Shown: positions 251 through 62,323, numbered from the whole stretch's first letter. The stretch is 63,386 nt of DNA, filler included, from 10 parts of 10 records of this genome joined end to end with filler, not necessarily neighbours in it, one strand, 5' to 3'. The notes: generated by a model not told the origin, from the sequence alone. Numbers and translations are program-made.

Positions 251-962
251 TTATATTGCGCGGGCGGGTTCGCAGGCTGGCTCGTGCTCGGCCAACTGGA
301 GCAGTTGCTCGAGGTACTCGTCAGCGCCCATCTGGAGCCCGCGCACCCCAGCCACCAGCATCCGCAGGTATTCCAGGTTGGAGCCACTCGGACCAACCGC
401 CCCCCGGATGACCATCGCCGTCTGTTCGAGCGGTTCGCCCTCCAGCAGCGCCGACTGGCCGGGCTCCCCTGATTGGTCGTAGCAGTACAGCTGCACCTGC
501 CGCCCACAGTCGGGGGGCGGCCCCGGGCGGGTGGCGGGCCTGGTGCTGCTGGCCGTCGGCGTCCAGCACCTGCCCGAGCTGCCGGGTGTACCCGTGCCTC
601 TCCCGGAAGTCGAGCCCGGCGATCGTCTGGGCCCAGGCCTCCTCCGGGACCTCATACGCCACCCCCGGCACACGGTCGGCCCCCGGGCGCGCGATCAGGG
701 TCACCACCCGACCGGGAGAGGCTGGGGTCCCCCGGTGGTCGCAGCTCTTCATCCAGAACCTCCGGATGAACCCGCCCTGCAGCGAGCACTCGAACCGCCG
801 ACAGTGCTCAAACTCGGCTTTCCAGATCAGCGAGCCGTACCCAAACACAAGCCGGCAGCTCGAGCCCGCCGCCGCCTCAGACACCTGCCCGCCCGCTCGC
901 CCGCCCACCCAGCCGCCCGCCACCCGGGCCGTCGCCCAGCATCCGTGCTCAGCCTCGCCCAT
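251..962 (-). CDS. ChaC-family glutathione-specific gamma-glutamylcyclotransferase (spliced)
   Basis: Motifs VFGYGSLIWK, RRFWMKSCDHRGTPASPGRVVTL, LDFRE and GPSGSNLEYL. Frames are joined by GC-AG intron 497-539; probable in-frame intron 885-923. Start codon uncertain (962 or 980). Confidence 0.9.
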
Positions 963-1057
963 ATCACGTTCCGTTGTCACGGCCGTTATTCATGGCAGTG
1001 GTGGGGTGGGGAGGTCCGCCTGACTTGGAGGGGCCCCGGTGCGAGCACCGGCGGGTG

Positions 1058-1921
1058 ATGAAGTACCCGCAGACGTTCAGCAGGCTGTGCCGGCAGGCGG
1101 CCGAGAACGACCCGGTGCTCCGGTCGCTCGACCTGCGCGGGTTCCAGCTCGGGCCGGACGGGGCGCGCGAGCTGGCCGCCGCCCTCTCCAGCAACAGCAA
1201 CCTGCTCGAGCTCAACCTGTGGGTCAACCACATCGGGGACCGCGGGCTCGAGCCGCTCTGCCAGGCGCTCCAACGGCACGGCTCGCTGGCCAAGCTCGAC
1301 CTGTTCAACAACGACTTGGGCGACCGGGCGGCCGCCGCCCTGGGCGAGCTGCTCGGGTGCAGCGGCAGCCTGACCGAGCTCGGACTGCGGGGCAACAATA
1401 TCAGCTGCGCCGGGGCGGCCGCGCTCGCCCGGGGGCTCGAGCGGAACAGCCGGCTGCTGGTGCTGGACCTGAGCGATAACCAGGTCGGCGAGCAGGGGAT
1501 GGCCGGGCTAGGCCGGGCGATGGCCGGCAACCGCACCCTCAAGCAGCTGCTGTTCGACGGGAACCCTGGGAGCGCGGCGGGCGACGCGGTGGAGGCCGGG
1601 CTGGAGCGGAACCAGCAGGCTTTGTATGAGGCTGAGGTGGAGCGACTGAGCGATCAGATGATACAAGACGAGCAGCTCCCGATACACTCGGGCAGCCAGC
1701 GGGCCGACCTGCGCACGCTGGCCGACTGCGCGCACGCGGACCTCGGGATCCTGCACACGGAGCTCATCTTGGACCTGGTGGACAAGCCTTCGAGCCGGGT
1801 GGACAAGACACCGGCGCACCAGATGATCAGGAAACCGGTCGTGTCGGAGCTGACCGTGTGCGACGTGAGCCAGAGGGTGCTCCACCAGGCGGCCAGCCCG
1901 ATCAACATCAATAAGGACTGA
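1058..1921 (+). CDS. RNI-like leucine-rich repeat protein
   Basis: Repeats such as LELNLWVNHIGDRG, LDLFNNDLGDRA, LGLRGNNISCAG and LDLSDNQVGEQG. An upstream in-frame ATG at 992 is possible. Confidence 0.85.
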   Translation: MKYPQTFSRLCRQAAENDPVLRSLDLRGFQLGPDGARELAAALSSNSNLLELNLWVNHIGDRGLEPLCQALQRHGSLAKLDLFNNDLGDRAAAALGELLGCSGSLTELGLRGNNISCAGAAALARGLERNSRLLVLDLSDNQVGEQGMAGLGRAMAGNRTLKQLLFDGNPGSAAGDAVEAGLERNQQALYEAEVERLSDQMIQDEQLPIHSGSQRADLRTLADCAHADLGILHTELILDLVDKPSSRVDKTPAHQMIRKPVVSELTVCDVSQRVLHQAASPININKD

Positions 1922-2178
1922 GCCGCCGGTAGACCAACGACTGAGATCCGCTCTGCTCCGCACCCACTGGTCTGATACTGGTGTGAGCTTACGTAAAGCG
2001 ATCGGCCAATCCGGGGCGTCATTAGGGCGTCATGCCACTATTAAAACTGAACCTACTCGCATCTGTAGTAGCCCCGCGAAGCCGAGATAGCAGCTCTAAA
2101 AGATTCAGTTACATTCTGTGGACGTTGTGGTCCCCCGCCAGGCTTCCAGCTCCCAACGGCAAGATTCCGGACTTAGAA

Positions 2179-5322: not shown

Positions 5323-5422
5323 NNNNNNNNNNNNNNNNNNNNNNNNNNNNNNNNNNNNNNNNNNNNTTAATTAATTAANNNNNNNNNNNNNNNNNNNNNN
5401 NNNNNNNNNNNNNNNNNNNNNN
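5323..5422. other. Artificial contig linker
   Basis: N44-TTAATTAATTAA-N44 (stops in all six frames). Confidence 0.99.
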
Positions 5423-6849: not shown

Positions 6850-8134
6850 ACGCTAGTCTTACTATTGGGTGATGCGACACTAAGTGGTGTGAGTGGCGCC
6901 TCCTCTTCTTGCACTGGTTCGAAATGATAAACCGGTACCTGACCACCACAAGAGATTGAGGTGGAATACTCAAAAGGAAAAACTAGTAGCACAGCCAAGC
7001 GTTTAAGGAACTCACCGCTGTACTCTTGAGATTCTCAGATCCCTTCAGCGCTTGGGCAGATGCGCTTTCTGAGTCGAGCTTGTAAGAAGGATATTGGACT
7101 GGTCTGGACCCTGGATTTGTTTTTGTGTCATTGCTTGCTGGATCCTGAGGGGACATTCTCACAACATGATCTGCCAATGCTAGACAGCACCTCGTTAAAG
7201 CCATGGAAAATCGGAACTGCAGTCTTTGTGATCATCCCTGTGGCACCTCCGCCACGAGTGATGACGCACTTTTTCGATGAAGAGGTGCTCATAGCAGTAG
7301 AGTTTCTGGCTACCGAAGGTGCAGCTGGAATCTTGTTTGCAATATTCACTTCCTTGACTGGCTGGGTGACTGCTGCAGACAACGAGGGACGTGAGTGTGC
7401 AGCCATAGGCGGAGCTCACCGGATGCACTAAGACTCTTTCCAGGGGGTGGGCGCTGTGCGATGCTGGGCGGAGCGACCACACTACTCGGAGGCGGCCCAG
7501 CCACGCTGGTTGCTGGCGGGACCGCACTGTCAAACTCGGAACCTCGAGCGCTTGGCTGCTCTCTTATACTCATCTGACTAGGGACATGGCATGCGTTGTT
7601 CCTGAGGGCTGGATCTGCCCCCTTTGAGATCAGATAGTCTCCCACCTGGCCCGCCTCAACTCCGAGGCAACAGACAGGTCACCTCAGTAAAGTTATACGC
7701 AGAGCAGTAGTGCAACGCTGAATTGCCCTGCGTGTTCTGGGCATTGATGTCTGCCTGCCAACCGAGCACCATCTAATCACGGCGGCTCTTGCAGCCCAAC
7801 CCACCCCATAGCGCAAAAAGAGCTTTACAAATCGCTTCCGGTTGTTCTGGCTCGCCAGGGTCAGAACAGTGTTACCGTAGTTGTCCTTGCGGTGCACTAT
7901 TTCGGGATTTCTGAGCACCATCGCTTCGGCCTCGGCGAACCGGTTGGCCTGAATGTGCCTGCCAGGGCTCCCTGGTCAACCCGCTGCCGCCAGCTGCACT
8001 CGCCTCCGGATCTGCTGCAGCTCATCGGCCGGCCCATCCAGCGAGACTGGACCGGCTGCGACCGGTTCCCGGGCCCCAGCCGCTTCCCTCGGCTCTCGCC
8101 CCGATTCCCAGGCGGTATCGCGTACCGTCGCCAT
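6850..8134 (-). CDS. Ankyrin-repeat protein (multi-exon; 3' end approximate)
   Basis: DNYGNTVLTLASQNN, ADINAQNTQGNSALHYC and YLISKGADPALRNN, joined by short introns including GC-AG 7959-8003. Confidence 0.75.
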
Positions 8135-8205
8135 AGGTCACCCTGCCATAGAGTCTAGAGACCGTTGGAAGGCAGTTGAACACAGGCCGGAGCGAAGGGG
8201 GCGGG

Positions 8206-12699: not shown

Positions 12700-12799
12700 N
12701 NNNNNNNNNNNNNNNNNNNNNNNNNNNNNNNNNNNNNNNNNNNTTAATTAATTAANNNNNNNNNNNNNNNNNNNNNNNNNNNNNNNNNNNNNNNNNNNN
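12700..12799. other. Artificial contig linker
   Basis: N44-TTAATTAATTAA-N44. Confidence 0.99.
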
Positions 12800-17217: not shown

Positions 17218-17317
17218 NNNNNNNNNNNNNNNNNNNNNNNNNNNNNNNNNNNNNNNNNNNNTTAATTAATTAANNNNNNNNNNNNNNNNNNNNNNNNNNN
17301 NNNNNNNNNNNNNNNNN
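17218..17317. other. Artificial contig linker
   Basis: N44-TTAATTAATTAA-N44. Confidence 0.99.
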
Positions 17318-22049: not shown

Positions 22050-22524
22050 TTAATCTTCTCCTATCCGATCGGCGTACTCTATCTTCTTCTTCTCCTCCTC
22101 CACGTGCTTCTTCTCAGCCCGTGTCCGCTTGGTATCGTTCTCCTGCCCGAAGCTGTCAGCAGCCGGGCCGGTGATGCGGGCTGCCTGCAGGAACTTGTTG
22201 AATCTGATCAGGTTCTCCTGCAGCTCCAGGTCCTTCTTCTTGATGATCTGCTCCCGCCGCCAGTACTGCTCCTCCCGCCTGTCCCGGCCTCGCGCCCGCG
22301 CCCGCCGCGCCGCCGCACCGGGCGTAGTCGCTCTTCTGGGCCTCGAGCGCCTCCTGCACCTCGATCTTCTGCCGGCGCTTCTCCAGCAGTCGGGTGGCCG
22401 GCGACACGTGGTCGATCGTGAGCTGCGGCGGCACATTCCTGCGGACCGGGCTGGCCGAGGCCTCTGGCCGGCCGGGGCACTTGCGCAGCAGCTTGGGCAG
22501 GAACTCGTCCGTGGCCCCCGACAT
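22050..22524 (-). CDS. CFAP73/CCDC42-family flagellar coiled-coil protein, apparently truncated
   Basis: DHVSPATRLLEKRRQ...LQENLIRFNKFLQ|ENDTKRTRAEKK with GC-AG intron 22143-22184; early stop. Confidence 0.7.
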
Positions 22525-25116: not shown

Positions 25117-25216
25117 NNNNNNNNNNNNNNNNNNNNNNNNNNNNNNNNNNNNNNNNNNNNTTAATTAATTAANNNNNNNNNNNNNNNNNNNNNNNNNNNN
25201 NNNNNNNNNNNNNNNN
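25117..25216. other. Artificial contig linker
   Basis: N44-TTAATTAATTAA-N44. Confidence 0.99.
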
Positions 25217-40400: not shown

Positions 40401-40500
40401 NNNNNNNNNNNNNNNNNNNNNNNNNNNNNNNNNNNNNNNNNNNNTTAATTAATTAANNNNNNNNNNNNNNNNNNNNNNNNNNNNNNNNNNNNNNNNNNNN
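40401..40500. other. Artificial contig linker
   Basis: N44-TTAATTAATTAA-N44. Confidence 0.99.
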
Positions 40501-40651
40501 TGGTTGGTTTTCTGGTTGGTGCTTTGGTTGATGCTTTCTTCCGACGGCGACGCCCAGCCATGCTCTCTTCTGCTCCTTCGTTGAGGTCGACCGCGGCGAC
40601 GGCAACAAGCAGGAGCGCGCACGCCAGCACGAGCAGCCGACGGCGAGCCAT
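40501..40651 (-). CDS. 5' fragment of a secreted protein with PT-repeat linker
   Basis: Signal peptide MARRRLLVLACALLLVAVAA, then KAPTRKPT running into the gap. Confidence 0.55.
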
Positions 40652-40951
40652 GTCACACGCAAATCACAAAGGAGATTAAAGTGCGGATTTCAACTATTGC
40701 GCTCTGACCGCCGCACGGCCACCGTCTCCAGAGCAGACGGCCACGAGGAAAGCCACCACCGGCGCGCACAGCGGTGTCACTTGGTGACGCCGGGTGATCA
40801 CCTGTGATTTGTGATCCACTCGTGATATTGCCAGCTGCAGGTGTGTCGACAACGGATATTGCCTGGGTTTGAGCTGACCCGGCTGTGGAGGGCGACAGTA
40901 GGTGCTGGGCGTGGGCCGTGCTGGGGCAGCTTCACACTTGAAGTCGAGCTG

Positions 40952-42890: not shown

Positions 42891-43057
42891 TGATAAATTC
42901 AAGGTCGTACTAAGGCCGTACGAGGTTAGTAAGGGGCCAACATGAACATTGGTCTTCGCCATTCAATTAGCTAGCTAGGGGCCAATTGCAATAAGCTTTA
43001 TCATACCGGTACGAGTACTAAGCTTACGTACTGTATACTCATATGAGTCACGATGGA

Positions 43058-44011
43058 TCAAAAGTAGTAAACTTGCTCAAAGTAGCCGCCGTTGGCGCCG
43101 GTGTACACCGGGCTGTACGAGTAAATCAGCTCCTCAGGCGCCACCGGGCCCCGGCTGCTCAGTCGAGTCTGAGCCACAAAGAAGTCTGCGAGTGCTTGCG
43201 AGCTGGCGACCGCAGCCGCCGAGTGTGGGATGGCGTAGTCTACCCGCCACTCAAAGTTGTTCTTCTCCGGGTGGAACTGTGTCCCGAAAACCGGCCACTC
43301 CTTTGCCTGCACCACCGCAGCGAACGGCTTGCCCTTCCGGTCGCTGTTGCTCGCGAGCAATGCAAAGAACGAGCTCAGGCCGGGGTGTGTGCCAAAGCTC
43401 TCCGGTCGGACCCCCATCGAGTGCATGTTCATAGTGATGTTCTGCTCGCCCAGCGCTGCCAGCGCCACCGGGGCCTGATCGCGCAGCTGGCGCCACATCC
43501 GGCTCCGGCTGGCCGACGAGGTCCACTCGAGTGCCAGCGGCAGGTTCTCGGCGTCGTAGCCGCTCTCGAGCACCGAGTGGTCGCCCCCGCGCATCGGGTC
43601 GGCCCCGAGCACGTTGATCAGCTCGAACCCGAGGCAGGTGCCCCAGAGCGGGAACGGGTCGCCCGCTGCGGTCGAGTTGAGTCCGAACTCCCACACCCGC
43701 CGGGCGGCCTTGAAGAAGGCCGAGTCCGCGGCCAGGCTGGAGCCGCCGCCCGGGAAGAGCACCCCGTTCAGGTCAGCCAGCCGGCTGAGCAGCGCCGGAT
43801 CGTCAAACTTGAGCGGGACGGCCCGGGCGCCGGCGCTCTCGAGCCACTTGACGTAGCTGGCCGCGATGTAAGAGCTGGCGTTGGCCGGGGCTGGGCCGGA
43901 CTCGAGCGGCTGGCTCATGATCCCGATCGCCGGACCCGGCACAGGCGCCCCGCCCACCAGGGCCGCAGCGCTCAGCGCCGCGATGAAGACTACGGCAGAC
44001 ATCGGCGACAT
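43058..44011 (-). CDS. GGH: Gamma-glutamyl hydrolase (peptidase C26)
   Basis: Signal peptide; YIAASYVKWLESAGARAVP, NGVLFPGG, FPLWGTCLGFE and QFHPEK. Intronless. Confidence 0.95.
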   Translation of the reverse strand: MSPMSAVVFIAALSAAALVGGAPVPGPAIGIMSQPLESGPAPANASSYIAASYVKWLESAGARAVPLKFDDPALLSRLADLNGVLFPGGGSSLAADSAFFKAARRVWEFGLNSTAAGDPFPLWGTCLGFELINVLGADPMRGGDHSVLESGYDAENLPLALEWTSSASRSRMWRQLRDQAPVALAALGEQNITMNMHSMGVRPESFGTHPGLSSFFALLASNSDRKGKPFAAVVQAKEWPVFGTQFHPEKNNFEWRVDYAIPHSAAAVASSQALADFFVAQTRLSSRGPVAPEELIYSYSPVYTGANGGYFEQVYYF

Positions 44012-44694
44012 GAGCAGGTTGGGCCCTACTGATGTCCGTTGTTGGGGCCGGCGGGACCTCGCCTGGCCCGCGGGGGTCTCGGCAAGGTGATCGCCAAGCT
44101 CGCCAAACTCAGAATGCCCAAAAGCTGGAGGCGCGGCTCGAGGGTGGGGTAAGCGTGTGCCGCCTCTCGCTGTCTGGAAGCGCTTCAAGGGCATGGACGT
44201 TCGCCCAGCACCGAGCAAAAGCTCCAAAACTGGAGCCCACGTCTCGCGCAGTCGCGCTCAGGGCGGCCTCGGGGCTTGCCGCTGGCACTCCCTCGGGAGT
44301 GGCGGTTGGTGGCAGGACTACGAGTAGGAGAAGCTCATCCTCCCACCCAGTTTGGAGAAATGTTAAAATGTTTGTTCTGGATCGACACACATTGCACTAG
44401 ATAAAGAGTTGTTTGGAGATCGATTCTAGCTAAGCTGATAACGCGCGCGATAGATTCGATTTTTATAGGCTGTTCGACAAGGTCACGAACTGCAGTCGCA
44501 ATAGACTATAAGCGAGCTGGGTGTTTGATATATATGCCAATTAAACATAAAGGTGTATAGTGATTGGACTAACTACACCCAGCTACACAACAAGTGACCG
44601 CTAGCGCTGTTAGTACCCGCTCTCCGTCACACGAGCATCATTGAGCAACAACAACAACACAACGGACTCTGTCCGGCGACGCCGGTGCGGAGAG

Positions 44695-47600
44695 ATGGCC
44701 GACTTCGGGGCGGTGAAGGCCTGGCTGGAAGCGGACGGCCCGAAGAGCCCGGCGCTCAAACAGTTGCTCGACAACGTTCACCAGGCGGCCGATGGGGCCA
44801 TCGAGCCGGAGCAGTTCAGCCAGGCCGCGGCCGAGTGCGCCGGCGAGCGGCTGAGCTCGGCGCTGGCGGACACGCTGGCGCTGGTGACGGTGGAGTTCGA
44901 GGAGGACGGGGAGGAGCACACTCGGCTGGCCGGGCTGATCAAGAAGCTGATCGAGGCCGAGATGCTCTCCAAGCCGCTGCTGATCGAGCGGCTCGAGTTC
45001 GGCTGGCTCGAGGTGGCCGACGGGCCGGCCGGGGCCAGCGGGCGGGGCAGGAGCTGAACGTGGTGCCGTCCAAGGAGAAGCTGGCCCGGAAGGAGGTCGG
45101 CCGGCCGGGCCGGCCGGGGCGGAGCCAGGGTAGGTGCAAGTGCGAACCCGGATGTTCTTCACCCAGCAGAAATTCAACCTGTTCCGGGAGGAGTCGGAGG
45201 GCTACTCCAAGCTGATCACCGAGCTCAACCAGGGCCCCGGGGCCCCCACCGAGGCCACGGTCGGCCAAGTGATCGCCAACTGCCAGGCGAGTCCGCCGGG
45301 CGCTGCGGCTGACAGAGTGGACGCAGTCGCTGATCGGATTCTTCGACTTGGACCCCAACCGGGTGTTCGACGTGGTGCTCCAGGCGTACGAGTACAACCT
45401 GGACAACCCGAGCTTCCTCCGGATCATCGAGGCGCTTCCTCCGGGCTGCGCTGTGCGAGTAGTGCCTCTGGCAGGTGTTTAAACAGGACTTTCTGCCTCA
45501 CATCCTCGGGTTCAAGTTCCAGCTTTACAGCCGCAAACTCAAGGAGCTGGACCCGGAGGCCCCGCCCACCCTCTACCGGCTGTCGGCCCAGCTGATCAAG
45601 GCCGGGTACCTGTCTCTCGACGCGCTGTACCCGCACTTGTCGCCCGCGGATGCAGCCGGGACAGAGGAGCAGACAAAGCTGTTCAAAATGCGGATGGAGG
45701 AGGCCCGCCAGGCCGGGCTGGTCTCGCTCAACCCGGACGCCGACAAGGACAAGCCGGCCAAGCCCGAGCCGGAGCTGGATGCGAACCAGAAGTTTGGGCT
45801 GGTGTGTGGGCTACTCGAGGTGGGCGACTTTGTGAACGCAGACGGGCTGCTCACACGGCTGGGCGCGATGCTCCCGAGCCAGGACAAGCAGGTGGTAGCG
45901 GCGCTCTGCACGGCAGTCGAGCGGATGATTGAGCCGCTCTACAGGGAGACTAAGCAGGGCAAGCTGGTGCTCAGGCCGCCCGCAGACACGCTCGACATGA
46001 GTGGTGACCCAGCGCTCACACTCTCCTCGTTCGACGAGCTGGAGGATATGCTATTCCCGCTGCTCAAGCACCTGCGCGGCCGGCTGGCTCGCAGGCCGCT
46101 GCTGTTTGCCAAGCTGTGCAGAGTTCTCACAGCATACGCTGGGCAGCTGGCGGACAGCCCAGAGAAGCTGAGCAACGTGCTGCCGGTGGTGAGCCTAGTG
46201 CTGCTCCCGGCGCTCACACTGCACGGGACCGGGCCGGGCGAGCCGACTGCTGCGCGGGCCAACCCTGGTGCGACGGATGAGCTGTGGAGTCTGATCAAGC
46301 TGTGGCCGTACGAGGAGCGATTCAAGGCGTATGGCGAGTGGAAGGCGTACGGGGCGGTGAACGACCCGGAGCTGGTGCTGCTGATGAATCTAGCCACCAA
46401 GGAGGCCAAGAACCAGCTTAAGCGGCTCTCCAAGGACTCGAACAAGCAGAAGATAGTGGGCAAGGAAGTGGCCAAGCTCAGCCACGCGAGCCAGGTGGCT
46501 GGCCGGGCCGGGCCGGGCGAGCTGGGGGCAGTTCCAGCTGTTTGACGCGATGCTGGCCAACATCAAGGCATACGACAACATGATCAAGCCGACCGTGGAC
46601 GCGTGCAAGTACCTGCACCCGATGTCTTACGACATGCTCACCTTCTCGCTGATGGATCACCTCTGCGGCGAGATGAACTCGCCAAAGCTCAAGGAGGACG
46701 GCCAGAACATCGCCGACTGGCTGTGCAACCTAGCCACGCTCTGCGGCGAGCTGTTTGTCAAGTACACTGTGAGCATCGAGCTACACGCGCTGCTCATGTG
46801 ACTCGCCGCTCGGTCGAGCTGAGCACCAGGCCAGGTACGTGGCCAACCAGCTCAAGAGCAAGAACGTGTTCGACCTGCTCGTGCTCAAGGAGCTGCTCTC
46901 CAAGTCGGGGGTCGACTCGATGGAGGACGGGTCTGACTCGCAGATCGAGGCACTCGGGGGCGGACCACTGCTCCGCACCCAGACCACATTCGCTGTCCAG
47001 TCGCGACCCAAGAAGGTCAACCGGCCGGCTCGGCCCGGCTGACCGGACGGCAGGTGGCCTCTCGGATCCGCGAGTGCATGGGGCCGCTGGCAGTGCCGTT
47101 GTACATTCTGATTGGACAGAACAGGCAGAACATTATCTTTAATCTAGACTTTGGAGGCTCGATCAAACTGATCTCGGATTTGCACGATAAGTGCCAAGAC
47201 ACAATGATCCAGTTTGTGGAGTTTGTGCACACCTACTGCACCGCGGACGGCAGCCTGGCCAAGAGCGTGCCGCCCACAAACGAGTTGGTGTGCAAGTACC
47301 ACCTGGAGCCACAGGCCGCCTTCCTGCTCACGCGGCCGTTCCTAAACCCCAACGGGCACTACGGGGCCGTCTCCGGCGAGATCCCGATCTCGTTTGCCGA
47401 CGCAGTGGACAAGCTGGAAGAGATCGCCCCGCCAAACACGCTGAATGTGCTCTCCAAGGAGCTGTACTCCAGCTTCTGGTGCCTCGGGCTTTACGACCTG
47501 AGCGTGCCGTCAGAGCAGTACGAGGCCGAGGCCAAGAAGCACAAGAGCGAGGTGCAGCGGCTCGAGAACGAGCTCCGGCACGCGAGCGACAGCCAGAAGC

Positions 47601-49029
47601 GCAAGCTGGACAAGGAGAAGCAAAAGAGCTTGGACATGATCAAGAAGCTCGAGGAGGAGAGGTCAGCGCACGTCAAGCACACGCGCGAGGTGAGCAAGCG
47701 GATCAAGCTCGAGTCTGCAAAGTGGATCACCCAGTGCGACGACCACTTCCCGACCATCTTCCTGCAGGCCTGCCTGCTCCCGCGGGTGGTGATGACCGCG
47801 CCCGACGCGCTGTTCTGCTCCAAGTGGGTGTGTGGGTGGGCTTTTGCTGAGGCTGGGGCAGGTTCATGCAGCTGCTGCACCAGAACGGGGTCAAGAACTA
47901 CTTCACGCTCCAGCTGACCGCCGCTATGTTCTCTGCCATCCATGGGATTCTGTTCAAGTGCACCGAGGCCGAGGCCGGCAGGCTAGGCCGGTTCCTGCTC
48001 GCCCAGCTCTCGCTGCTGCAGCAGTGGCACTCGGACGAGGCGGTGTACAAGGACCAGTGCGAGTCCAAGCCGGGGTTTGCCACTCAGTTCAACGACCCGA
48101 CCTCCAAGCGGGCCTCGTATGCTGACTACAAGCAGATCCTAGGCAAGTGGCATCACAAGCTGGCCCGCACGCTCGTGACCAGCCTTGAGTCGAATGAGTA
48201 CCTGGACAAGCGGAACGCGCTGCTCGTGCTGATCAAGGTGGTCAAGGTCTTCCCCAAGATCAAGGTGCTCGCGGCCGCCATCGAGAAGCGAGTCAAGACC
48301 ATGGTCGAGACCGAGGACCGCGAGGACTTAAAGCTGCTCTCCAAGCGGTACCTGGCCTCTCTCACGCACGAGAAGGCCTCCTGGCTCTCGAATGAGGACT
48401 TTGGACTCAAGCCAGTTGCCGGCAAGCGCCCCAAGCCGGCCCCAGCAGAGTCAGCCCCGGCCGAGAAGCCCGCTGCCGAGCCCAAGAAGGAGCCCAAGAA
48501 GGAAGCCAAGAAGGAGTCCAAGAAGGAATCCAAGCCGAGCACGCCGCGCGAGTCCAAGGAGTCAAAACCGGAGCCGGCTGAGCGAGCCAAGCCGGCGCGA
48601 GAGTCAAAGCCAGCCGACGAGCGGAGCGCCAAGCCGAGCAAACAGGCCGAGCCGGCCAAGAGACGGCGGGAGCCGGAGGAGACGACGCGCAAGGGCAGGT
48701 CGCGCAGCCCTGCTGCAGGGGCCGACCGCCGGAGCGCCGACAAGGAGCCGAGCAGGGGTGAGGAGCGGGACAGGCGAAAGGCCGACGAGTCAGGGAGCAA
48801 AGAGTCGGCCCGGGGCAAGGAGGCAGCCGGCGGGCAGCGGGACGAGAAGGCTGCCGCCGAGGAGCCGCCGCCTAGCAAGCGGATCCGGTCTGAGCGGCTT
48901 GGAGAGAGGGAGGATTCAAGCCGACAGCGCGGCGGGAGGAGAGACGACGAACATGGCTCGGGCGCCTCCAAAAGAGGGCGGGAGGAAGAGGCACCTCCAC
49001 GCAACCGAACAGGCCGGGCCCGGAGGTAG
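44695..49029 (+). CDS. THOC2: THO complex subunit 2
   Basis: [78 protein letters not shown] and a charged tail; 8 short introns, 2 of them GC-AG. Confidence 0.95.
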
Positions 49030-49301
49030 TCGGGAACTCGGGATCCAATGTTGGATCATTCAGTGCGGACTCGTAACGAGACAATCATGACTTGTATCGA
49101 TCGAGTAGGTTTCAATAAACGATTTTACCGATTCTAAAATTTCTCATGATTGCGCCGCGCACACCTCTACGCACACCTCATCAAACTTTGCAATTGATCA
49201 GTGCTAATTGGTAGCTAATTGGTGTGCATGCACGTCTATGCACGTCGACGTCATGCACATGCATGATACATCATCGTTCAAACCAATGCATCATTTGTAC
49301 A

Positions 49302-51668
49302 TCATTTGGCGACGCACTCCGTGGCGGTATGTCCGTCATGCCCAATCGTGATTCGTGCCACCACAGACCCGGCCCGCCCGACCGTGCACGCGACCTGCGT
49401 GTGCTCGCCGTGCGCGCTCCAGCCGGTCACGACCTGCTCGGCCTCGCTTCCGAGCACTGTGACAGCCGCCCAAGCTCCATCCGGGCCAGCCCCGTACTCG
49501 AGGTTACGGTAGCGGGCCTGGCTTACAGGCACCCACTTGGCTTGCTCACCCAGCAGGGCCAGCCCGTTGGGGAGCACCGGGGCGACCGCCCACAGCTGGA
49601 AGTCCCACTTGCCGCACTTGCGCAGCTCGATCTGATCGGCCGTGCTCAGCTTGCTGGTCGAGTTGGCTTCGTACGACACAGTCGGCCCGGCGATCTGGAG
49701 TTCGTCCGCGATTGACACTTGGAAGTGGTCGCCCAAGGTAGCCCCGAGCAGCACCGCCCATCCCATCCCGGACAGCTCGGTCCGGCCGGCCCAGATCTCG
49801 CCGTTTGATTTGCCGCTGAACGCTGCCCGCTGGTGCTGCGAATCTAGCGCCATCGCCGGCTTGTCGGGCTGGAGCAGCTTCCCATCGGCCCGGCAGCTCT
49901 TGAGGATCAACTGAGCGTCCGAACGGCCGATCTTGTCAGAGGGCGCGACCGGCCCTTTGCTCAGGGTGGAGACGGCGGCCTGGAGCCGGTTGTACGGCTC
50001 CTTGATGGTCGAGTGGTCGCTGTAGGCCGAGTCAGTCTGCACGTCTGTCGACCAATAGTTGTCTTTGGTCGGAGCAACTGCCACCGCCCAGCCGAAGATC
50101 CCGGTGGTCCCAAGCGGCTGCCACTGATCGTTGCCGGCATGGTAGTCGCCGGAAGCCCTCGCGTTGGTCACAGCGGGCAGCTCGAGCGACTGCATGATGT
50201 GCCGGCAGTGCGACATGCAGTACTGGATGGTCAGGTCGTTCGCGGCGGCGGCCGAGGCCATTTGGTGCAGCCAGGTCCGGCCGGCGGTGGCGTTGGTGTT
50301 CAGGAGGAGCATGTTGTCGTACTCTGTGTCCAACCAATCCTGTCACAAACCATTCAGCGCCAGCTCTAGCGCGCGGGGCACCTGCTCGTACATAAACAGC
50401 CCCCACTGGGACGAGTTGTACATCAAGTCGTCCCAGAACCGCTGCTCGGTCGGCCAGGCAAAGTCCTTGTACTGGTCCGGCCGGTCGGCCTTCCGCTCGA
50501 CCACAAAGTCATACTGGCCGCCGTTGTCGGTTGCGTACACGTTGTCCACGGCCCAGTAGCGGTTGTGCCCCATGATAGGCCACCCAGTCTGGTTGCGCAG
50601 GTAGCTCAGTCCGTTGGGGAACACGTCGGGCCGGCCAACCCACTCGGAGACCCCGCCGCCGGTCCCCTGGTAGTACCACCAACTGTCCAGCAGCACATAC
50701 CGGTAGGGAATACCCTCAGCCTGCGCATACTTCTTGACGTCTATCAGAGTCTGCTCGTAGCTCCGGCCGTGGCTGTACGGCGGGCCCCTGCTGGTGCCGC
50801 CCTGCTCGGTGTGGTAATAATAATAAGCCCCATTATCAGTCGAGTACCCCAGGTAGTTAAGTGCGTAGTCCTTCGCCCAGCTCGCCTCACGCGATTTGCC
50901 GTACAACCCAAGCAGCTTGTCGCCCCACCGCTCAAACGCCCGGTTCACCCCGCCCGCCGGGCTGGCCGCCATCACGAACTGGATCGAGAAGCCAGCCGGT
51001 GCGCTGGTCATGCTGCCCTGGAGCCCATATTTGATCAGGTCATGCTCGGCTTGGCTGCTGGCTGCCATGAAGTTGGACCCGGACGAGATCACCAGGCTGC
51101 GCTCGAGCCCGCCGCTGAACACGCAGGCCGGCCCGAACCCGGTCACCCCGCTCGGAAGCTCGGTGTGGCCCCACTTGCCGTACTGGTACCCGGAGCCGGT
51201 CATGTCCCCCGCGAACGCGAGGAAGCCGAGCGGCTCCGAGCTCGAGTTGTCCAGCCGGAGCGACGGGAAGCTGGACGAGACCTTGTCCCGCCCGCCCTGC
51301 GGCTGGGTCTTGTTCAGGCTGGCCCCCTCGATCCCGAGAGGAAAGGATTGCTCGAACACGATCAAATCGCCGTAGCTCCGCCAGCTGGTGACGAACTTGC
51401 CCCCGTCCCAGGACATGCTGTGCGCCTCGAACTTGCCCCACCCGTCCAGCCCGGACGACTTGCTCCCGGGGCCGTCGCTCGGCAGGCTGCCGTCGGCGGT
51501 GCTCCGTGTCTTGTCTCCGGCCGTGTATTCGATCGGCCCCGAGCTGAACCAGCGCCGGCCGGCCATCAGCACCGCGTAGCCACCGTGCGCGTCGATGTCG
51601 ACCGAAATCAGGTCCGCGCCGGCCGCCGGGAGCGCGAGCAGCGTCAGGCTGAGCACCGCGATCTTCAT
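49302..51668 (-). CDS. Secreted clan GH-D-like (GH27/GH36-like) glycoside hydrolase of uncharacterised family
   Basis: Signal peptide; YLGYSTDNGAYYYY, LLDSWWY, MYEQ|DWL (one ~42-nt GT-AG intron) and RASGDY. Confidence 0.65.
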
Positions 51669-51879
51669 CACACCGGACATGTGCTCGTGCGAGCCGGGGT
51701 GTGCTGCTGACATGGAGGTGTGCGATTCGGATTGTGGTCTCGGAGGCCCCCGTCCCAGCTCATGCACATCAGCAGGATGCGGATCAGGTTGCATGGGCTA
51801 GCCGGCTAGGGCTGAGACAAGGGGTCCTGAGGCCTTTGAGGATGACGACGGCGGGGGCTGGTGGTAAAGCCCCCGTCTC

Positions 51880-51979
51880 NNNNNNNNNNNNNNNNNNNNN
51901 NNNNNNNNNNNNNNNNNNNNNNNTTAATTAATTAANNNNNNNNNNNNNNNNNNNNNNNNNNNNNNNNNNNNNNNNNNNN
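51880..51979. other. Artificial contig linker
   Basis: N44-TTAATTAATTAA-N44. Confidence 0.99.
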
Positions 51980-52037: not shown

Positions 52038-53070
52038 TCACATGTTTTCTAGATCATGTGCCGGATCTAGTTCATCCATTGTGAGGCTAGTGTCTGCGTC
52101 CTCAGCTGCGGCCTCCTTCATAAGCGGCAGTTCATCCTCTTCAAGCGGTTCGTCCTGCTGACCAATTCAAACCAGTTCACTGCTAAGCTTGCACCTCTAA
52201 AATTTCCACATCCGGGCTGTCTGGCTCCTCAGACTCTGCTGCTTCCGCCGCAGCCCGGGTGCGATCTAATTCCTGTAATTCCTGCTTAGCCTGGGCCACA
52301 ATCACTCGATCCATTTCAACGCCTGGCCCACGTTTCACAGGGCCAACGATACCAGGTCAGACCTGTCTCAAAGAAACCCATCGAGACCAGCACCTTGATG
52401 AACGCTATTGCAGGCAGGGATGGCGCCAGCGACTGGTGCAGCCCATCCAGCGATTCGTGGTTGATCACCACCGCCCAATCCCGCTCGTCACCCTCGTTGC
52501 TGCAGCTGTTCTCGCTTACCCGAGCACCTGTCCCTGAGTCTGTCTGAGTCTGTGAGGTGCGCACCGCAGATTCGGTGCCACTGGCCGTCATCCGGAAGCA
52601 GAAACGAGACGGTGTACAGCATCTGCACCGTCATCCCGTCGTCCGACGGCACTCGACGGTACAGGTGGCGCACGCTCACAGCGCCCTCCAGGAAGCACGT
52701 ACACGTCTCCATGCTGTCCCCTGGGTCAGCGGCAACCACCGGCCCGCGGGTGCCTGTAGTTGCCGTCGTCCTCGACCACCCGCTGGTCCTCGATCTCCAG
52801 CGTATCTAGGAGTACCTTGGCCTCGGCCTTGGCGTGGTCGGACAGGCTCCGGAGTTTGTTTAGCCAGCAAGTCACTTTGTCCACCGCCTCGGAGTGTAGC
52901 TGCATTTCCCGGGCGGCCTGATGCAGCATCGCCAGCAGGGCAATTGCCTCGGGCCCACCACCCGGAGCGTGCCGGGAGACCAGCCCCTTGATCATGCCCC
53001 GGGCCGCTTTCAGGTCCGCCTGCCCCTCTGCCTTCAGCTGGAGGGCACCCGCTGCGGCCTGCACCTTCAT
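52038..53070 (-). CDS. Hypothetical protein (about 4 short introns)
   Basis: Four ~37-40-nt introns (one tentatively GC-AG, 52714-52753) give a continuous frame with an acidic C-terminus. No homology recognised. Confidence 0.5.
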
Positions 53071-53898: not shown

Positions 53899-56800
53899 AT
53901 GGGAGGAGGCCGCTGGGCGCACACTTTGCTGCTCGGCGTGGCGCTCGTGCTGAGCCTGGGCCCGGGAGCAAGGGCGGAGTGCCCGGATCTGGCGCATGTT
54001 GAGGCCGGCTTCACTTTTTGCGCCTGGATCCGGACCAACCAGCTCGGGCGGGCGGTGCTCTTGAGCAGCCAGGCCGGAGCACTCTATGAGCATCAGGGCG
54101 CCGTGCTCTTCGCGGACAAAGGCCGGCTCGGGCTGATGCTGATCCGCCGGCTTTTCCGGGGAGAACTGCTCGAGCTTGTGACAGGGCCGGCCGGTTTGAA
54201 CGACGGAGCGCGGCACCACGTCTGCGCTAGCTATGACGGCTCCGGCCGGGCGGACGGAGTCAAGCTTCAGGTGGACGGCGTGCTCCGGCGCAAGCATGTG
54301 CGGCGCGACAAGCTGCCGGCCGGGCCGCTCTCGTCGGTGCCGCTGCACACCCGTTGCGGCACGGCCGGCCCGAGCGCCCCCAAGTCGCTCGGCCGGCCTC
54401 TGGAGGGCGGACTCAGGCAGCTGGTGCTGGTGGCACGCCAACTGACCAATCCAGAAATGGCGCGGTTAGCAGCGATGGCCGGCGGCCGCAAGAGCCGCGT
54501 GCCGGAGGCTGGCTCGCTCGAGTTGCCGGTCCACCAGAAGTTCCCTGACTGCGTACAAGAATGCCGCCAGCAACCGGCGTGCTCAGGGGTGACCTACAGG
54601 GGCAAGCAATGCCGGGTGCGAATCAGACCCGGGACAAGCCGAGCGGCATGGCTGAACTCTGGGAAGCGGTCAAAAGGCTGGAACAACTGGGTCAAGTACA
54701 GCAACTCAACTCAGAGTCCACTCCAGCTGAGGATTCGACTGGCCGGATCGCAACAGATAGCCGATCAGGTCCGCAGCCTGGTGCCTGGCCGATCGGTCCG
54801 AGTCAACAAGCGAGTGCGGATAGAGTCCATCTATCGGATTGATGGCGTGCCGTCCGTGCGAGCTGTAGTCGGACAACGGGCAGGCCGGTGGGTTTGGCAG
54901 GCCACGCAGCAGTCGTGCGCACGGCTGCCACTGCGTAAGTGGCATGCGTGTGTCAAGCTGAGCCGGCAGCCCGCAGCAGCTCAGGTCAGTGCTCAGCGGC
55001 AGTTGGGCGAGCTTAGTCCGAACATGCCCAAGGTTGGATCTGTGCACTGCAGCTCGCAAGTCAACCTGGCTCGGAACGCTGCGGTCAGAATGTCGAGCAC
55101 TCAAGGCAGCACGCAAGACTTCGGTGGTCAACTGGTGGTTGATGGCCGCACGGCGGCTCTTGATGCTCCTGGTCATACTTGCTTGACTAAGAAGGAGTTC
55201 AATGCTTGGATCGAGCTCGACTTAGGCAGCCCTGCCACCGTAGCCGAAGTGCGAGTATTTAACGGCTTCACCGATGAGCAGGGCATCCCAACGAACTGTA
55301 CCTGTGATCTAAATCCTTTCACAATCACACTGAGCGACAGCAGCGGAGCAAAATTGCGTGAGCACCAGATCTCGAGTGTTTGCCGGACTACAATAGCAGG
55401 ATTCGAGCTCGACCAGGGGCATGGCAGCTGCGACCGCATGCTCGAAGATGGGCCTGTGCTGCGCTGGAGTGGATTCCAACAGCCTCATGTCCGGTTTGTC
55501 CGTATTACGCTTGCCAACCACACAGCTGCGCTGCATGTGGCCGAAGTGGAGGTGGCTCCTAGCTGCAGCTCCGTAGACTTTTCAGAATGGGCCGGGCGAT
55601 GGCAAGTGCATTTCGACGATCCAGCCAACACAACAGCGGCTTACGAATTCACTGTGGCTGGAGGCGTCGAGTCTCCTGCAGCCGGTGGGGTCCAAGTCTC
55701 GAATGGGCAGTTATATCCTACTGAGACGCCCGCTCTGTACAGGGTTTCTGGAGGGCTAGGCATTCCGGCGTTGGAATTTGCATCATTGAGCATGCCAGGA
55801 AATGTATTGACTCTCGATAGGTATCTGTTGCAGCCATACAAAGTGCCTGCTGAGCCCGGCTGGCGGTGTCGACTGCCCCTCGTGGGCCAGCAGCAACATG
55901 GTGGAGGCGTTGGGCTTGGCAGTGCGCAAGACTTCTTGTCATTACCTCGTGACTAAGCACCCCGCTCCTGGAGTGATCGCTGGCCAGGTTTCGAGTACGG
56001 ATTCCAAATTCCAGATGTCGCTGCATGCTTCAACGTTTGTGAACGATTCCCAGAATGCCAGCAGGCATCCTTCAACAAACAAACCGCGGTGAGAGTGCTG
56101 GGCCCACGCAGTTTCTCACAGCTCTGTTGCTTTAGGTGTGCAGTCTTCTCAACAAGGCGTTTGTTGGCCATCGAGCCGATCCAGATGTTGTGTCGACTAT
56201 ATGCGCAGACAACTTGGTCAAAGAAATAGTCCATGGAATTGGCGCCCCCGACTTTCAGGCTTGGGGCGGGCCTTGTCCATTAGGATATACACCATTGGCT
56301 AACCTAAGCGATCCCCTTTGCTGCCATGGGTCATGCTTGCCGGGAAAGGAAAAAGCCAAGCACAACTTGCTGTGCACCCGAGCTGGCTTCAAACTCCAAA
56401 GCGCACCAACATGTGCCCAGCTGATAGCCCAGGGCAATCCGCTAGAGATTGCTCAGCGGCCTGATGAATCCCACGCAGACGATCTATCACCTGCGACTGG
56501 TGCCTCTACTGTAACCTGGAATGGAGGAGTATCCAAGCAAGAAGCAAAGGCTATCCAACTCATGCAGCGCCAAGGTTACTGCTTTCGGTTTCAGCCGCTG
56601 AGTGCAAAGGAAATGCGGATCACGACTCAAGGTGGGCTCGATTCCAGCAGCATGGCAAGTTTCCGGTGCTGCTGCCTGTCTGTTAGATGATTGACTGTGT
56701 GTGCATAGGGCTATTGCAGGCCTTGCAGTGAATAGTTCTACGTCACTTGCCTCATGCGATGCTCCTCACCAATCTTATGTTCTGCACACTTCAACTTCAG

Positions 56801-58588: not shown

Positions 58589-58602
58589 TGGCATTTAGTG
58601 CA

Positions 58603-58702
58603 NNNNNNNNNNNNNNNNNNNNNNNNNNNNNNNNNNNNNNNNNNNNTTAATTAATTAANNNNNNNNNNNNNNNNNNNNNNNNNNNNNNNNNNNNNNNNNN
58701 NN
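58603..58702. other. Artificial contig linker
   Basis: N44-TTAATTAATTAA-N44. Confidence 0.99.
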
Positions 58703-59304: not shown

Positions 59305-59598
59305 GACCACAAGAAACTAGCACAAGCAATCAACTTAGCTAATCCATCCAATCCAAGTTTTCACATTCAAGGATCGGTGCTTGGTCACTTCAAGATGTGT
59401 ATCGGCCATGTATCCGCGTATTTAGAAGCTCAAAATTGTAGGCTGAGGCCAATCACGGAGGACAATTGTTGCGTATTAATCATTCTTTGTGAACGTGTTG
59501 CCAGCCAACTTTTTAATTAAACATTACAAAGACCGTATACACACGCCTTAATGCGGTCCACACATGCGTAGAGGTACGTGTTTGCTCATCTTTTGTGC

Positions 59599-60491
59599 TC
59601 ATTCTTTATCCTTCAACGCTTCTGCCGTGAGTTGCCCTCGTAACAACCTGTGCCACCTTACCCGGCTTCTTAAGTGCCAATTCCACCTCACCAGCAGCTG
59701 CTTCTCTTGGCTGTTTTGGTCCATCCGCTCCTCCAACGGCCACCACCTGGCGCGAAAGGCTCGCCCTCAGCATTCGGCGGGCGCATGCGGGACCTTAAAG
59801 TGAGAATATAAGTCTTGTCGTCTGCTACAATCATCGGGAAGAACGTCGACTGAGCCGCCGCCGCCACCACTCTGTACGGCAACCCTTCGAACGGCGCCAC
59901 CACCCGACTCAAATCGACTAGCGTGTCCTGTCACCCAGCGCTCGGCCCGTCCAGGCCGGATCCTTTGCCTGCCGTTGCCCCCAGAACGATAGAGTGCTGA
60001 TCCTCAGCTGGTTGGTCGGCCGTTTCAGCGCGAGCAGCCCCACATACCTGGGCCCAATCGCCTGGCCCGTCCCAACAACGGCCACCGCCGTCCGTAAAAG
60101 TACAAGGCGCCGGAGGCCACTCCACAGCCGGCCAGGATCGCACCGCTGCAGCTCGGGTGAGTGCCGGCCAGCGGCGCCCGACCTGAGGGCCAGCATGGCG
60201 GGCGAGGGGGCGGTGCCCATGGCCTGCATCGCTATCGGGGTGGCGAACGCGCTGGCGGCGCTGCCCGGCAGGGTGGGCGTGGCAGCCAGGCCGGTGTCAC
60301 CCGAGCTGGGCGAGTTTGGCCCGCAGGAGCAGCCGGAGCGGCATCAGAAAGGCGCCCTTGTACAGCCGGATCTCGCCCTCCACGCCAGCGCCGGCAGAGC
60401 ACCAGCGCAGCCCGTGCCCGCGAGGCTGGTGACACGCCGGCCGGCGAGGAGCTGCGTGAACGACCGAGCGACTCGCCACTCGGGCCAGCAT
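59599..60491 (-). CDS. TMEM186-like mitochondrial membrane protein
   Basis: Arg-rich transit-like N-terminus; RYVGLLAL...LRISTLSFWGQRQ|D across GC-AG intron 59928-59968. Confidence 0.6.
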
Positions 60492-60571
60492 CTTCCGTCA
60501 GTTTCCGTTATGCTGCCAGCTGCTCCGAGATCCAGGGGTCGGCACGCTGATCCTTGGCAGTGGCGGCTGCG

Positions 60572-62323
60572 ATGAGCGAGATGGCGAGCCCCCGGAGCCA
60601 CGAGCACCAGCGTGCGTTCGGGCTGCCTCACGGGGTGCCTGGCTGGGTGTGGTGCCTGGCCGACTGGTCGGGCAGGAGGTGCTAGTGGATGACTTCGCTT
60701 GTTCGCTCTGGCATAAGTTCCACCTGCCGGGCCGGATGTACGTATTCCAATATCACCTTTGCTTCCTGCACAAGATGCCCCCGATGAACGAGGCGCCCCC
60801 CCGGCCCGCCCAACGGCCAGCCCGACCGCAGATGACCATAACCATTCCGCTGCCAGAGGTTCAGGCGGTCGACAAGGCGCGCTCCATGGGAATCCTCTCC
60901 AACGCGATCGAGGCGCCCGCCCGGCGGCGGCCGGGGCGGATGCGGGGCAGGTGCTGCACGCGGGCGATCAGCTGGACGGCAAGCCCGGCCCGGCCAAGCT
61001 CTTCTTCTCGAACTTTATGAAAAGGGACACGGCCTTCGAGGTACTAACCCGAACCTGGAAGCTCGCCGTGGAGGCCCAGACCACCCGGGACGCCCAGGGC
61101 GGCCGGTGGACCCCAGCCAACGAGACCCGGCCCGAAGACGCCGCCCGGCCGTCCTCACCTGTCAGCAAGCCGGGCTCTGGCAAGTCGTCACCTGGTACTC
61201 CCGTGCGGCAGCACACGACCAGCCAGCCGCCCGGCGGGCTGATGCTACCCGAGCCGCAGCTGACCGACGATATCTCGCCGGCCGGGTCGGTCTCGCCGAG
61301 CCGAGCGGCCGAGTCACCGGAGCCGACGGCGCAGCACACTCGGAAGCGAAGCTTTGACCAGGCAACCGTGTCCTTGGGGAAAGATTTCGGGCTACCTACG
61401 GAGGTCTGGGGGGAGGGGGAGGGGGTCGGGACGGGCGGGGCAGGAGGCGGTGCTGATCAAAGAGTTCAGCTGCAAGGGAGAGATCAAGGATCTGATCACC
61501 ACGAGGGACACTGTGGACGAGATCAAGCTCGAGGGAAAAGCCTACCTGTTCAAGAACTACTTCTGCTTCCAGGCGCGCCCGGCCGGCTGACGGCGGCCAG
61601 CCGGTGCAGGCGAACGAGATGCGCCGGACGTCTTGCGATATCACCGGGGAGCCCGAGGCCTGTGAGTCTGCAGGGAACATCGGGCGCAAAAAGTGGACTG
61701 TGCCTCTGCGAGAGGTGACTGCGATAGAGAAGGCCCGGACGGTGCTGGTGATAACGGACGCGATCCGGCTTTACACCAACAAAGTCCAGTTCTTTCTCTC
61801 TAACATCAAGAATCGAGATCAGGTCGGCTCTGGCTGTTGCTTGGGCGTGATCTGCCTGCAGGTGCTCACCACACTTAATTCCGTCTGGGGGGTCTCGAAG
61901 GCCATGATAGACATCGCCGGTCCCTGCCCCGACCCGACCCCGATCGAGGAGCCCAAGCCGGCCAGCTCTCCGTCTGAGTCGGCTCACGCTACCCCACCCG
62001 GATCTCCACCACAGGGGCCAGATGCCGAGCCCGCCGAAAGCTCGAGCTTGCTCCTGAAGGGCACTGAGTTGGCGGCGGCGATCAGGCCGGCGGTGCTCCC
62101 GTGGCTGCCCACTTTGGCGCTGGTGCTGCTGGTGCTGCTTGCCGGCTGGCTTTGGGTGCTTTGGGGGCGACTGGATGCTTTGGGAGGGGCAAACGGATCG
62201 CAGCCGGTGTGCCAGGAGCCTGGGGCGGCTACCCAGCCAAACGCAATAGAGACGGAGGTCCGAGCAGAGCTGGAGGCTATGCGCACACACATACAACAAT
62301 TACTCGACAAGCTGCCTACCTAA
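60572..62323 (+). CDS. Tandem-GRAM-domain membrane protein
   Basis: EVLVDDFACSL..GRMYVFQYHLCF..NAIE..FFSNFMKRDTAF; second GRAM FSC..GKAYLFKNYFCF..IEKART..DAIRL; C-terminal TM; 6 introns, 3 of them GC-AG. Confidence 0.85.

Follow-up and report, generated by a model that had tools for sequence, protein, structure and literature searches.

GC-AG introns make up about 1% of human introns (PMC3167603) and 1.3% of the introns of the 61 species surveyed by Iwata & Gotoh (2011, BMC Genomics 12:45, PMC3033335). The same survey gives far higher values for two species, 39.6% in Aureococcus anophagefferens and 22.2% in Micromonas pusilla; according to its text, the putative U1 5' end agrees with the consensus in both, the abundance of GC-AG introns is linked to high G+C, and the cause of this abundance is an enigma. 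The present analysis concerns GC-AG introns in a window of 63,386 nucleotides (nt), the whole stretch of DNA that was analysed, in which ten contigs are joined artificially by linkers (N44, a 12-letter all-frame stop and N44; 18 N blocks). An earlier note on this DNA had listed 17 GC-AG introns, estimated their share at 20-25% and proposed an unusual mode of donor recognition. Comparison with intronless relatives confirms, as far as sequence can tell, that abundant GC-AG mini-introns are real in this window; the premise that such frequencies are unheard of falls with the published values for Aureococcus and M. pusilla (PMC3033335).

All 17 listed segments start with GC, end with AG, follow an exonic AG and measure 36-46 nt, and the bases at +3 to +6 of their donors differ as quoted in the earlier note. 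The claim that retention breaks the frame stands in part: 11 listed lengths are not multiples of 3, and the three in-frame segments given as required (at 7959, 24837 and 35623) each carry an in-frame stop, but the listed NSUN2 intron at 27881 leaves the frame open when retained together with its neighbor at 27961. Cuts were tested with a boundary scan that enumerates every donor/acceptor pair around a gap in a homolog alignment, with no assumption about splice sites or dinucleotides, keeps the frame-preserving, stop-free pairs and scores the resulting peptide against the homolog or, for NSUN2, against a 70-sequence homolog profile. The references were AMP deaminase (AMPD) from Telonema subtile (P0003) and Dictyostelium (P0009), a UBA5-like protein (P0123), a Peronospora THOC2 and the NSUN2 profile. 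These unrestricted scans returned GY-AG cuts (Y, C or T) at 19 of 19 scored junctions. They recovered eight GC-AG cuts, seven listed and one unlisted (24980-25020), for which a GT alternative is either absent or 20-40 points worse.

The listed sites fall into four tiers. In tier A the boundary scan itself returns the GC-AG cut (seven sites: 24837, 27881, 29541, 35014, 35623, 36285 and 45432); tier B relies on spacing within a domain or structure, or on an exact acceptor (five: 497, 22143, 45287, 60793 and 60913); tier C relies on frame and coding-score logic, with alternatives present (four: 7959, 42584, 59928 and 61573); and tier D holds one candidate (41922-41960). Intronless relatives that lack the segments are the Telonema transcript protein, a contig labelled L001 and the P0123 cluster.

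The AMPD gene has seven introns, three GC-AG and four GT-AG, according to scans against P0003 and P0009. Scores in the lists are those of the boundary scan, a slash marks the donor junction and exonic letters are in lower case.

35014-35053, + strand, GC-AG intron, tier A, 40 nt: gag/GCAGGT, score 47 (top 48, best GT-AG 27).
35210-35251, + strand, in-frame GT-AG intron, 42 nt: aag/GTATTT, single solution against both P0003 and P0009.
35428-35463, + strand, in-frame GT-AG intron, 36 nt: aaa/GTCCCG, single solution, without exonic AG.
35623-35667, + strand, GC-AG intron with in-frame stop, tier A, 45 nt: sole AG-acceptor solution against P0003.
35750-35784, + strand, GT-AG intron, 35 nt: cag/GTGCCT, sole AG-acceptor solution.
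36003-36043, + strand, GT-AG intron, 41 nt: cga/GTAATC, score 101 against a top of 106, without exonic AG.
36285-36321, + strand, GC-AG intron, tier A, 37 nt: top score 142, best GT-AG 102.

At 35014-35053 the other two AG-acceptor options start with GG or TA, and a GT four bases downstream breaks the frame. Against Telonema P0003, the cut at 35623-35667 scores 113 versus 85 for the best GT-AG option; the top score at 36285-36321 is tied only with a CA-AG shift, and 36003-36043 is the only AG-acceptor option at its junction. The intronless contig L001 (1510 nt, 86% identity) is colinear with the spliced gene, including across 35623-35667. A scan for the locus in metagenomes yielded four loci and no related genomic copy bearing introns.

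The UBA5-like ThiF gene also contains seven introns, two GC-AG and five GT-AG, relative to the intronless P0123 (75% identity). The homolog search gave 10 sequences. The P0123 cluster consists of contigs of 971-1162 nt that encode 225-303 amino acids. Two of the five GT-AG introns (24343 and 24239) were settled by enumeration and comparison by eye.

24980-25020, - strand, GC-AG intron absent from the earlier note, 41 nt, 90% G+C: cag/GCCGGG.
24837-24872, - strand, GC-AG intron, tier A, 36 nt: cag/GCAGCT, sole AG-acceptor solution, score 105 (best GT-AG 82).
24486-24520, - strand, GT-AG intron, 35 nt: ctg/GTGCCA, score 87 against a top of 90.
24343-24383, - strand, GT-AG intron, 41 nt: cag/GTGGCC, gapless against P0123 by eye; a GC option adds one residue.
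24239-24281, - strand, GT-AG intron, 43 nt: cag/GTAGGC, top option, colinear with P0123.
24161-24197, - strand, GT-AG intron, 37 nt: gag/GTGTGA, single solution, score 101.
24020-24062, - strand, GT-AG intron, 43 nt: caa/GTGAGC, single solution, score 90.

The segment at 24837-24872 corresponds to an exact 12-residue, stop-containing gap against four intronless relatives. The intron at 24980-25020 is the sole AG-acceptor solution against P0123 (105, best GT-AG 73) and is also predicted by a gene finder.

In the NSUN2 gene, the spliced model reaches 688.8 bits as one domain covering positions 36-452 of the hidden Markov model (HMM) built from 70 homologs, versus 659.8 bits for the read-through.

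27881-27920, + strand, GC-AG intron, tier A, 40 nt: only GY-AG cut in the top class (688.6 bits).
27921-27960, + strand, micro-exon of 40 nt between a GC-AG and a GT-AG intron.
27961-28001, + strand, GT-AG intron, 41 nt: gag/GTGCTC, 688.6 bits, at most 2 bits from the top.
29168-29206, + strand, GT-AG intron, 39 nt: cag/GTGGCT, in the top class.
29325-29366, + strand, GT-AG intron, 42 nt: gag/GTGCCG, at most 2.1 bits from the top.
29541-29578, + strand, GC-AG frameshift intron, tier A (weaker), 38 nt: aag/GCTGAG.

The profile scan found no in-frame GT-AG cut within 18 nt on either side of 27881-27920 or 29541-29578. The latter is the sole GY-AG cut of its top class, but the profile is flat across that class; the exon downstream is covered by the profile to residue 636 of 647. 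The introns at 27881-27920 (40 nt) and 27961-28001 (41 nt) together remove 81 nt, and the frame stays open when both are retained, so that an annotation based on open reading frames (ORFs) would read straight through the micro-exon region. Such a read-through without the micro-exon skips HMM positions 91-102 and is 29 bits worse than the spliced model.

The THOC2 homolog search gave two homologs, and a Peronospora protein served as boundary reference. The gene is also crossed by RNA, from a metatranscriptome run (X4) of a sample that also holds this DNA.

45287-45326, + strand, GC-AG intron, tier B, 40 nt: the high-scoring segment pair (HSP) with the homolog begins exactly at 45327.
45432-45474, + strand, GC-AG intron, tier A, 43 nt: gag/GCGCTT, single solution, score 65 (best GT-AG 38).
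46495-46531, + strand, probable GT-AG intron, 37 nt: best GT-AG 54 against a top of 60 with a distant homolog; also predicted by the gene finder.
46798-46834, + strand, probable GT-AG intron, 37 nt: frame change required; cat/GTGACT has the best coding score.
47016-47053, + strand, GT-AG intron spliced in RNA, 38 nt: an X4 contig joins 47013 to 47052 (recorded as cut +2).
47824-47861, + strand, GT-AG intron spliced in RNA, 38 nt: an X4 contig joins 47823 to 47862.

At 45432-45474 the Peronospora HSP stops at 45431, and colinearity resumes with the next exon at 45475. The donor of 45287-45326 lies in a variable loop where three options exist, and a GC option of 52 nt outscores it against a 28%-identical homolog. 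The RNA contig at the 47016-47053 junction has 77 letters on its shorter side. The boundary scan independently finds the cut seen in RNA at 47824-47861, which validates the tool, and the skipping of two 38-nt GT-AG introns in RNA shows that such mini-introns are spliced in this organism. X4 RNA contigs also cover 50578-51267, in a raffinose-synthase-like gene, without any joint; the organism is therefore transcriptionally represented in run X4.

A strain-variant DNA contig from another metagenome run spans 45140-45488 and carries seven listed substitutions and one 1-nt deletion. Six of the seven substitutions and the deletion fall inside the two GC introns (45295 and 45296 in 45287-45326; four substitutions and the deletion in 45432-45474), and the listed exonic change is at 45338. 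This contig bears on whether the GC donors could be errors of assembly or consensus in a metagenome bin, arising for instance from T/C polymorphism or from chimeric contigs. The ten contigs with artificial linkers and the small share of window words found in public runs would be compatible with such errors, but the contig from the other run, although it differs elsewhere, matches the window at both THOC2 GC donors as far as its listed differences go, and seven of the ten contigs carry GC-AG sites, whose length and context are constant. Artefacts are thus an exceedingly improbable source of the pattern.

The remaining listed sites lie in other genes.

497-539, - strand, GC-AG intron, ChaC-like gene, tier B, 43 nt: cag/GCCCGC.
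7959-8003, - strand, GC-AG intron candidate, ankyrin-repeat gene, tier C, 45 nt: gag/GCGAGT, in-frame stop inside.
22143-22184, - strand, in-frame GC-AG intron, DUF4200 gene, tier B, 42 nt.
41922-41960, + strand, in-frame GC-AG intron candidate, sugar transporter gene, tier D, 39 nt: cag/GCAGCC.
42584-42629, + strand, GC-AG intron candidate with frameshift, sugar transporter gene, tier C, 46 nt: gag/GCAACT.
59928-59968, - strand, GC-AG intron candidate with frameshift, gene without family, tier C, 41 nt: also predicted by the gene finder.
60793-60831, + strand, in-frame GC-AG intron, GRAM-domain gene, tier B, 39 nt: best coding score of 11 options.
60913-60950, + strand, GC-AG intron, GRAM-domain gene, tier B, 38 nt: also predicted by the gene finder.
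61573-61609, + strand, GC-AG intron candidate with frameshift, GRAM-domain gene, tier C, 37 nt: cag/GCGCGC.

For 497-539, the Pfam ChaC alignment runs to HMM position 97 in one exon and resumes at position 120 in the next, leaving 23 residues for 22 positions; against PDB 6ky0, 34 residues take the place of 32 chain residues, and the GT alternative 569-497 (73 nt) leaves 24. Profile continuity at 22143-22184 is close, with the upstream exon matching to HMM 55/56 and the downstream exon from HMM 56 (weak, E-value 0.11); the segment contains a CTGAC motif with its A at -14, and the sole GT alternative, 22194-22153, would put this A three bases from the acceptor. Read-through of 60793-60831 uses 80 residues for 67 GRAM positions, an excess of 13 residues that equals 39 nt. 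The GRAM alignment stops at the last codon before the donor of 60913-60950, and none of the nine frame-compatible options there is GT-AG.

The candidates are less constrained. At 7959-8003 there are 21 frame-compatible GY-AG options (3 GT and 18 GC), and no homolog was found for the upstream exon. The segment 41922-41960 has 18 frame-compatible options and a CTCAC motif with A at -12; the Pfam alignment begins near its 3' end and the piece upstream is without a match. The cut at 42584-42629 has the best coding score among 15 options (6 GT), and the Sugar_tr alignment stops 9 nt past the donor. There are eight options at 59928-59968, one of them GT (50 nt), in a gene without a Pfam match. The donor at 61573-61609 also fits acceptors at 61600 and 61618, and 1 of its 11 options is GT. 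Short exon pieces at 41787-41921, 42630-42689, 42693-42887, 60832-60912, 60951-61100 and 8006-8137 gave no match in Pfam. The gene finder predicts AG/GC...AG introns also at 52714-52753 (- strand) and 53909-53954 (+ strand, LamG-like gene), with no homolog evidence.

In the four curated genes (AMPD, UBA5-like, NSUN2 and THOC2), 9 of 25 introns are GC-AG (Wilson interval 20-55%), with two or three in each gene; tier A sites and 24980-25020 alone still give 8 of 25. A window-wide gene-finder run in which GC donors had to follow an exonic AG gave 12 GC-AG introns out of 55. The earlier estimate of 20-25% is a reasonable one, compatible with both the window-wide count and that in the flagged genes, and the share is far above the usual value of about 1%. 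About one in five to one in three introns begin with GC. In a decoy control that allowed GT together with one other AG/XY donor at a time, AG/GC yielded 12 introns against 0-5 (mean 2.4) for 14 decoys (Poisson P about 7e-6); it had the highest total score, even though three decoys have more sites. A naive gene finder with GT and GC donors and flat lengths was dropped as too noisy.

These counts bear on the possibility that many sites are mis-delimited, with a nearby GT donor or a retained coding segment at each and a true GC share of a few percent. In its favor, the cut at 5 of the 17 sites either follows from frame logic only or is undecided, and each of these has 8-21 GY-AG options that keep the frame; the three in-frame segments free of stops could be translated; and the GC dinucleotide is twice as common here as GT (0.106 versus 0.052). 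However, the unrestricted boundary scans uphold seven listed sites and one new site, 60913 offers 0 of 9 GT-AG options, AG/GC exceeds the decoy mean fivefold (12 versus 2.4), and tier A with the new site suffices for 8 of 25. Such mis-delimitation on a large scale is quite improbable.

The two donor classes are alike in anatomy. GT introns measure 35-43 nt and GC introns 36-46 nt. Position -2 of the donor is A in 12 of 14 GT and 18 of 18 GC introns, position -1 is G in 9 of 14 and 18 of 18, and position +3 is G in 10 of 14 GT introns and mixed in GC introns, with no consensus at +4 to +6 in either class. Beyond A-2 G-1 / G+1 Y+2 the donor is almost devoid of information, as these counts support. 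The degeneracy at +3 to +6 is hence not peculiar to GC donors, as had been supposed, since GT donors of the same genes show only the G preference at +3. In the curated genes, nine GC and 10 GT donors follow an exonic AG, and none of the GC but six of the GT donors are without it. For five GT donors without exonic AG (35428, 36003, 24062, 47824 and 46798), the exon after the acceptor starts with GT in 5 of 5 cases; after the sixth (24520) it does not.

The acceptor is more informative than the donor. Among 32 introns its consensus is GGCAG/G, without a pyrimidine tract (C at -3 in 30, G at -4 in 26, G at -5 in 21 and G at +1 in 23). A CT[CG]A[CG] motif resembling a branch site, whose A lies at -9 to -20, occurs in 10 of 21 verified introns versus 105 of 2129 exon 40-mers (4.9%); by class, verified introns carry it in 6 of 9 cases with GC and 4 of 12 cases with GT donors, and the other GC candidates in 3 of 9. 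G+C within the introns is about 0.71-0.76. The proposal that donors are set mainly by exonic AG and intron length agrees with the exonic AG at 9 of 9 GC donors and lengths of 35-46 nt, but it overlooked this strong 3' signal.

The host appears to be an uncultured marine protist with GC-rich DNA, and Telonema is the closest relative identified for it. For AMPD, the best relatives are two proteins derived from transcripts, of 86% and 83% identity, the latter (P0003) labelled Telonema subtile. In a search of public sequencing runs, the only runs listed, with 5-10% of the sampled window words, were marine and aquatic metagenome DNA runs, and RNA runs were absent from the list. G+C of the window is 0.53-0.68 per 4 kb and about 60% overall. 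Pfam searches of stop-to-stop ORFs identify eukaryotic genes for ChaC, ABCG, GH3, MIOX, the UBA5-like ThiF, an actin-related protein and NSUN2, and further for AMP deaminase, GH116, a sugar porter, THOC2, PLA2G12 and a GRAM-domain protein. Because the ten contigs are joined artificially, gene order across the following N blocks is meaningless.

N-linker blocks: 5323-5422, 12700-12799, 17218-17317, 25117-25216, 31978-32077, 37156-37255, 40401-40500, 51880-51979 and 58603-58702.

The best explanation, and a probable one, is that these are ordinary U2-type introns of 35-46 nt, with GC donors in a large minority, in a GC-rich Telonema-like marine protist. Since the introns are so short and uniform, the splicing machinery may recognise both ends as a pair, across the intron. 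The greater part of the information would then reside in how long the intron is, in its branch and 3' signals and in the exonic A-2 G-1. With these elements carrying it, T at +2 would be dispensable whenever the exon ends in AG, and GC-biased mutation pressure (60% G+C genome) could turn GT donors into GC donors that are still spliced. The same account has been put forward for Aureococcus and M. pusilla.

Alternatively, as the earlier note proposed, an altered spliceosome (U1 5' arm, U6 ACAGAGA box, U5 loop I or Prp8/U1C) might accept C at +2 as well as T and make pairing at +3 to +6 unnecessary. Consistent with this, both donor classes are without a +3 to +6 consensus, GC is about as frequent as GT after an exonic AG (9 versus 10), and the pattern is more extreme than that of animal and plant GC-AG introns. 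However, Rfam at the gathering threshold gave no match in the whole window and thus no small nuclear RNA, and Aureococcus (39.6%) and M. pusilla (22.2%) keep the canonical 11-mer at the putative U1 5' end. As these GC-AG-rich species have a canonical putative U1 5' end, an altered U1 is not needed for such a frequency, and a changed spliceosome is an unlikely cause.

Introners have been reported in Micromonas pusilla, one of the two GC-AG-rich species, and they have been linked to GC donors. Recent insertions of a mobile, introner-like intron family carrying or creating AG/GC...AG ends could yield GC donors in bulk. In the window, however, direct repeats flanking 33 introns have a mean of 3.24 versus 3.25 for shuffled donor-acceptor pairs (permutation p=0.56), the best pairwise similarity among 34 introns is 16, within the shuffled range of 12-19, and the introns are only 36-46 nt long. 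Target-site duplications and an intron repeat family are rejected for these 33-34 introns of one window, both being within shuffled expectation, and an introner origin is very improbable.

Several observations weigh against the interpretation as ordinary U2-type introns with abundant GC donors. The share of 9/25 is biased, the four genes having been picked because they were flagged, and that of 12/55 was obtained with a crude gene finder, which overlooks in-frame introns and produces false calls on the antisense strand. Once an exonic AG is no longer required, the decoy test loses its power to discriminate (GC 29 versus 7-25 for decoys), and a gene finder free to use any of the 16 donors shows no excess of GT or GC. 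Five of the 17 listed sites (tiers C and D) are candidates, each with the many options given above, and the exonic-AG contrast (GC 9/9 versus GT 10/16) is borderline (Fisher p=0.057). RNA covers no GC-donor intron; in a comparison of reads and contigs with 40501-51879, RNA cover is absent over 41922, 42584, 45287 and 45432, and GC splicing is deduced from the intronless sequences of relatives. The G+C of GC-donor introns does not significantly exceed that of GT-donor introns (p=0.73 and 0.25), which gives no sign of a local link to mutation pressure. Finally, the telonemid placement is a single-gene one, from AMPD, because the NSUN2 relatives in a representative search are distant (41-57% identical at the top) and taxonomically mixed.

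Like Aureococcus and M. pusilla, the host is a marine, unicellular, G+C-rich eukaryote with tens of percent of GC-AG introns of otherwise U2-type appearance. Unlike these species, it is of telonemid-like lineage, its introns are 35-46 nt, its count comes from one window and not a genome, its G+C is about 60% (window) versus 69.5% and 65.9%, respectively, and its 33-34 introns show no repeat family or target-site duplication. As in animal and plant U2-type GC-AG introns, GC at +1/+2, an AG 3' end and an exonic AG are found in otherwise normal genes, but the frequency is 20- to 30-fold higher and there is no compensating +3 to +6 consensus. Elsewhere, compensation for C at +2 by a strong +3 to +6 consensus is the rule. 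Here an AG/GCAAGT-like donor is not seen: 18 of 18 GC introns have the exonic AG, and +3 to +6 are without consensus. This does not exclude membership of the U2-type GC-AG class, because that feature is typical and not defining.

U12-type introns are likewise a minority class that is not strictly GT-AG; however, their ATATCC/GTATCC donor and CCTTAAC branch are absent from 18 of 18 GC introns, and a minor-spliceosome class is unlikely because a GC-AG share of tens of percent does not fit it. Nuclear introns of dinoflagellates use GC or GA donors, with +2 relaxed. Unlike these, every scored junction here has a GT-AG or GC-AG solution, and no GA or other non-GY donor is needed.

The literature searched, supplements excluded, gave no paper pairing GC-AG introns with Telonema and no description of telonemid nuclear introns. 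With abundant GC-AG introns already known in two marine lineages, the telonemid-like one would be a third and phylogenetically distant case, with introns of about 40 nt and no sign of introner repeats. More speculatively, and with a modest chance of being right, telonemids may splice by a true "GY-AG" rule, in which +2 is neutral after AG, U1/U6 contacts at +3 to +6 are close to nil, and a length ruler, the branch and GGCAG/G define the intron. If true, this rule would be a distinct, lineage-wide definition of the 5' splice site in an orphan branch of eukaryotes, possibly with changed U1/U6/U5 or protein contacts, and its origin would be independent of the introner-linked cases.

A comparison of the three lineages would make the question of 2011 testable, namely what lets some spliceosomes ignore position +2. 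Gene callers restricted to GT-AG would break a large share of this organism's gene models, and probably of those of its relatives, which matters for protein catalogues derived from environmental eukaryote assemblies.

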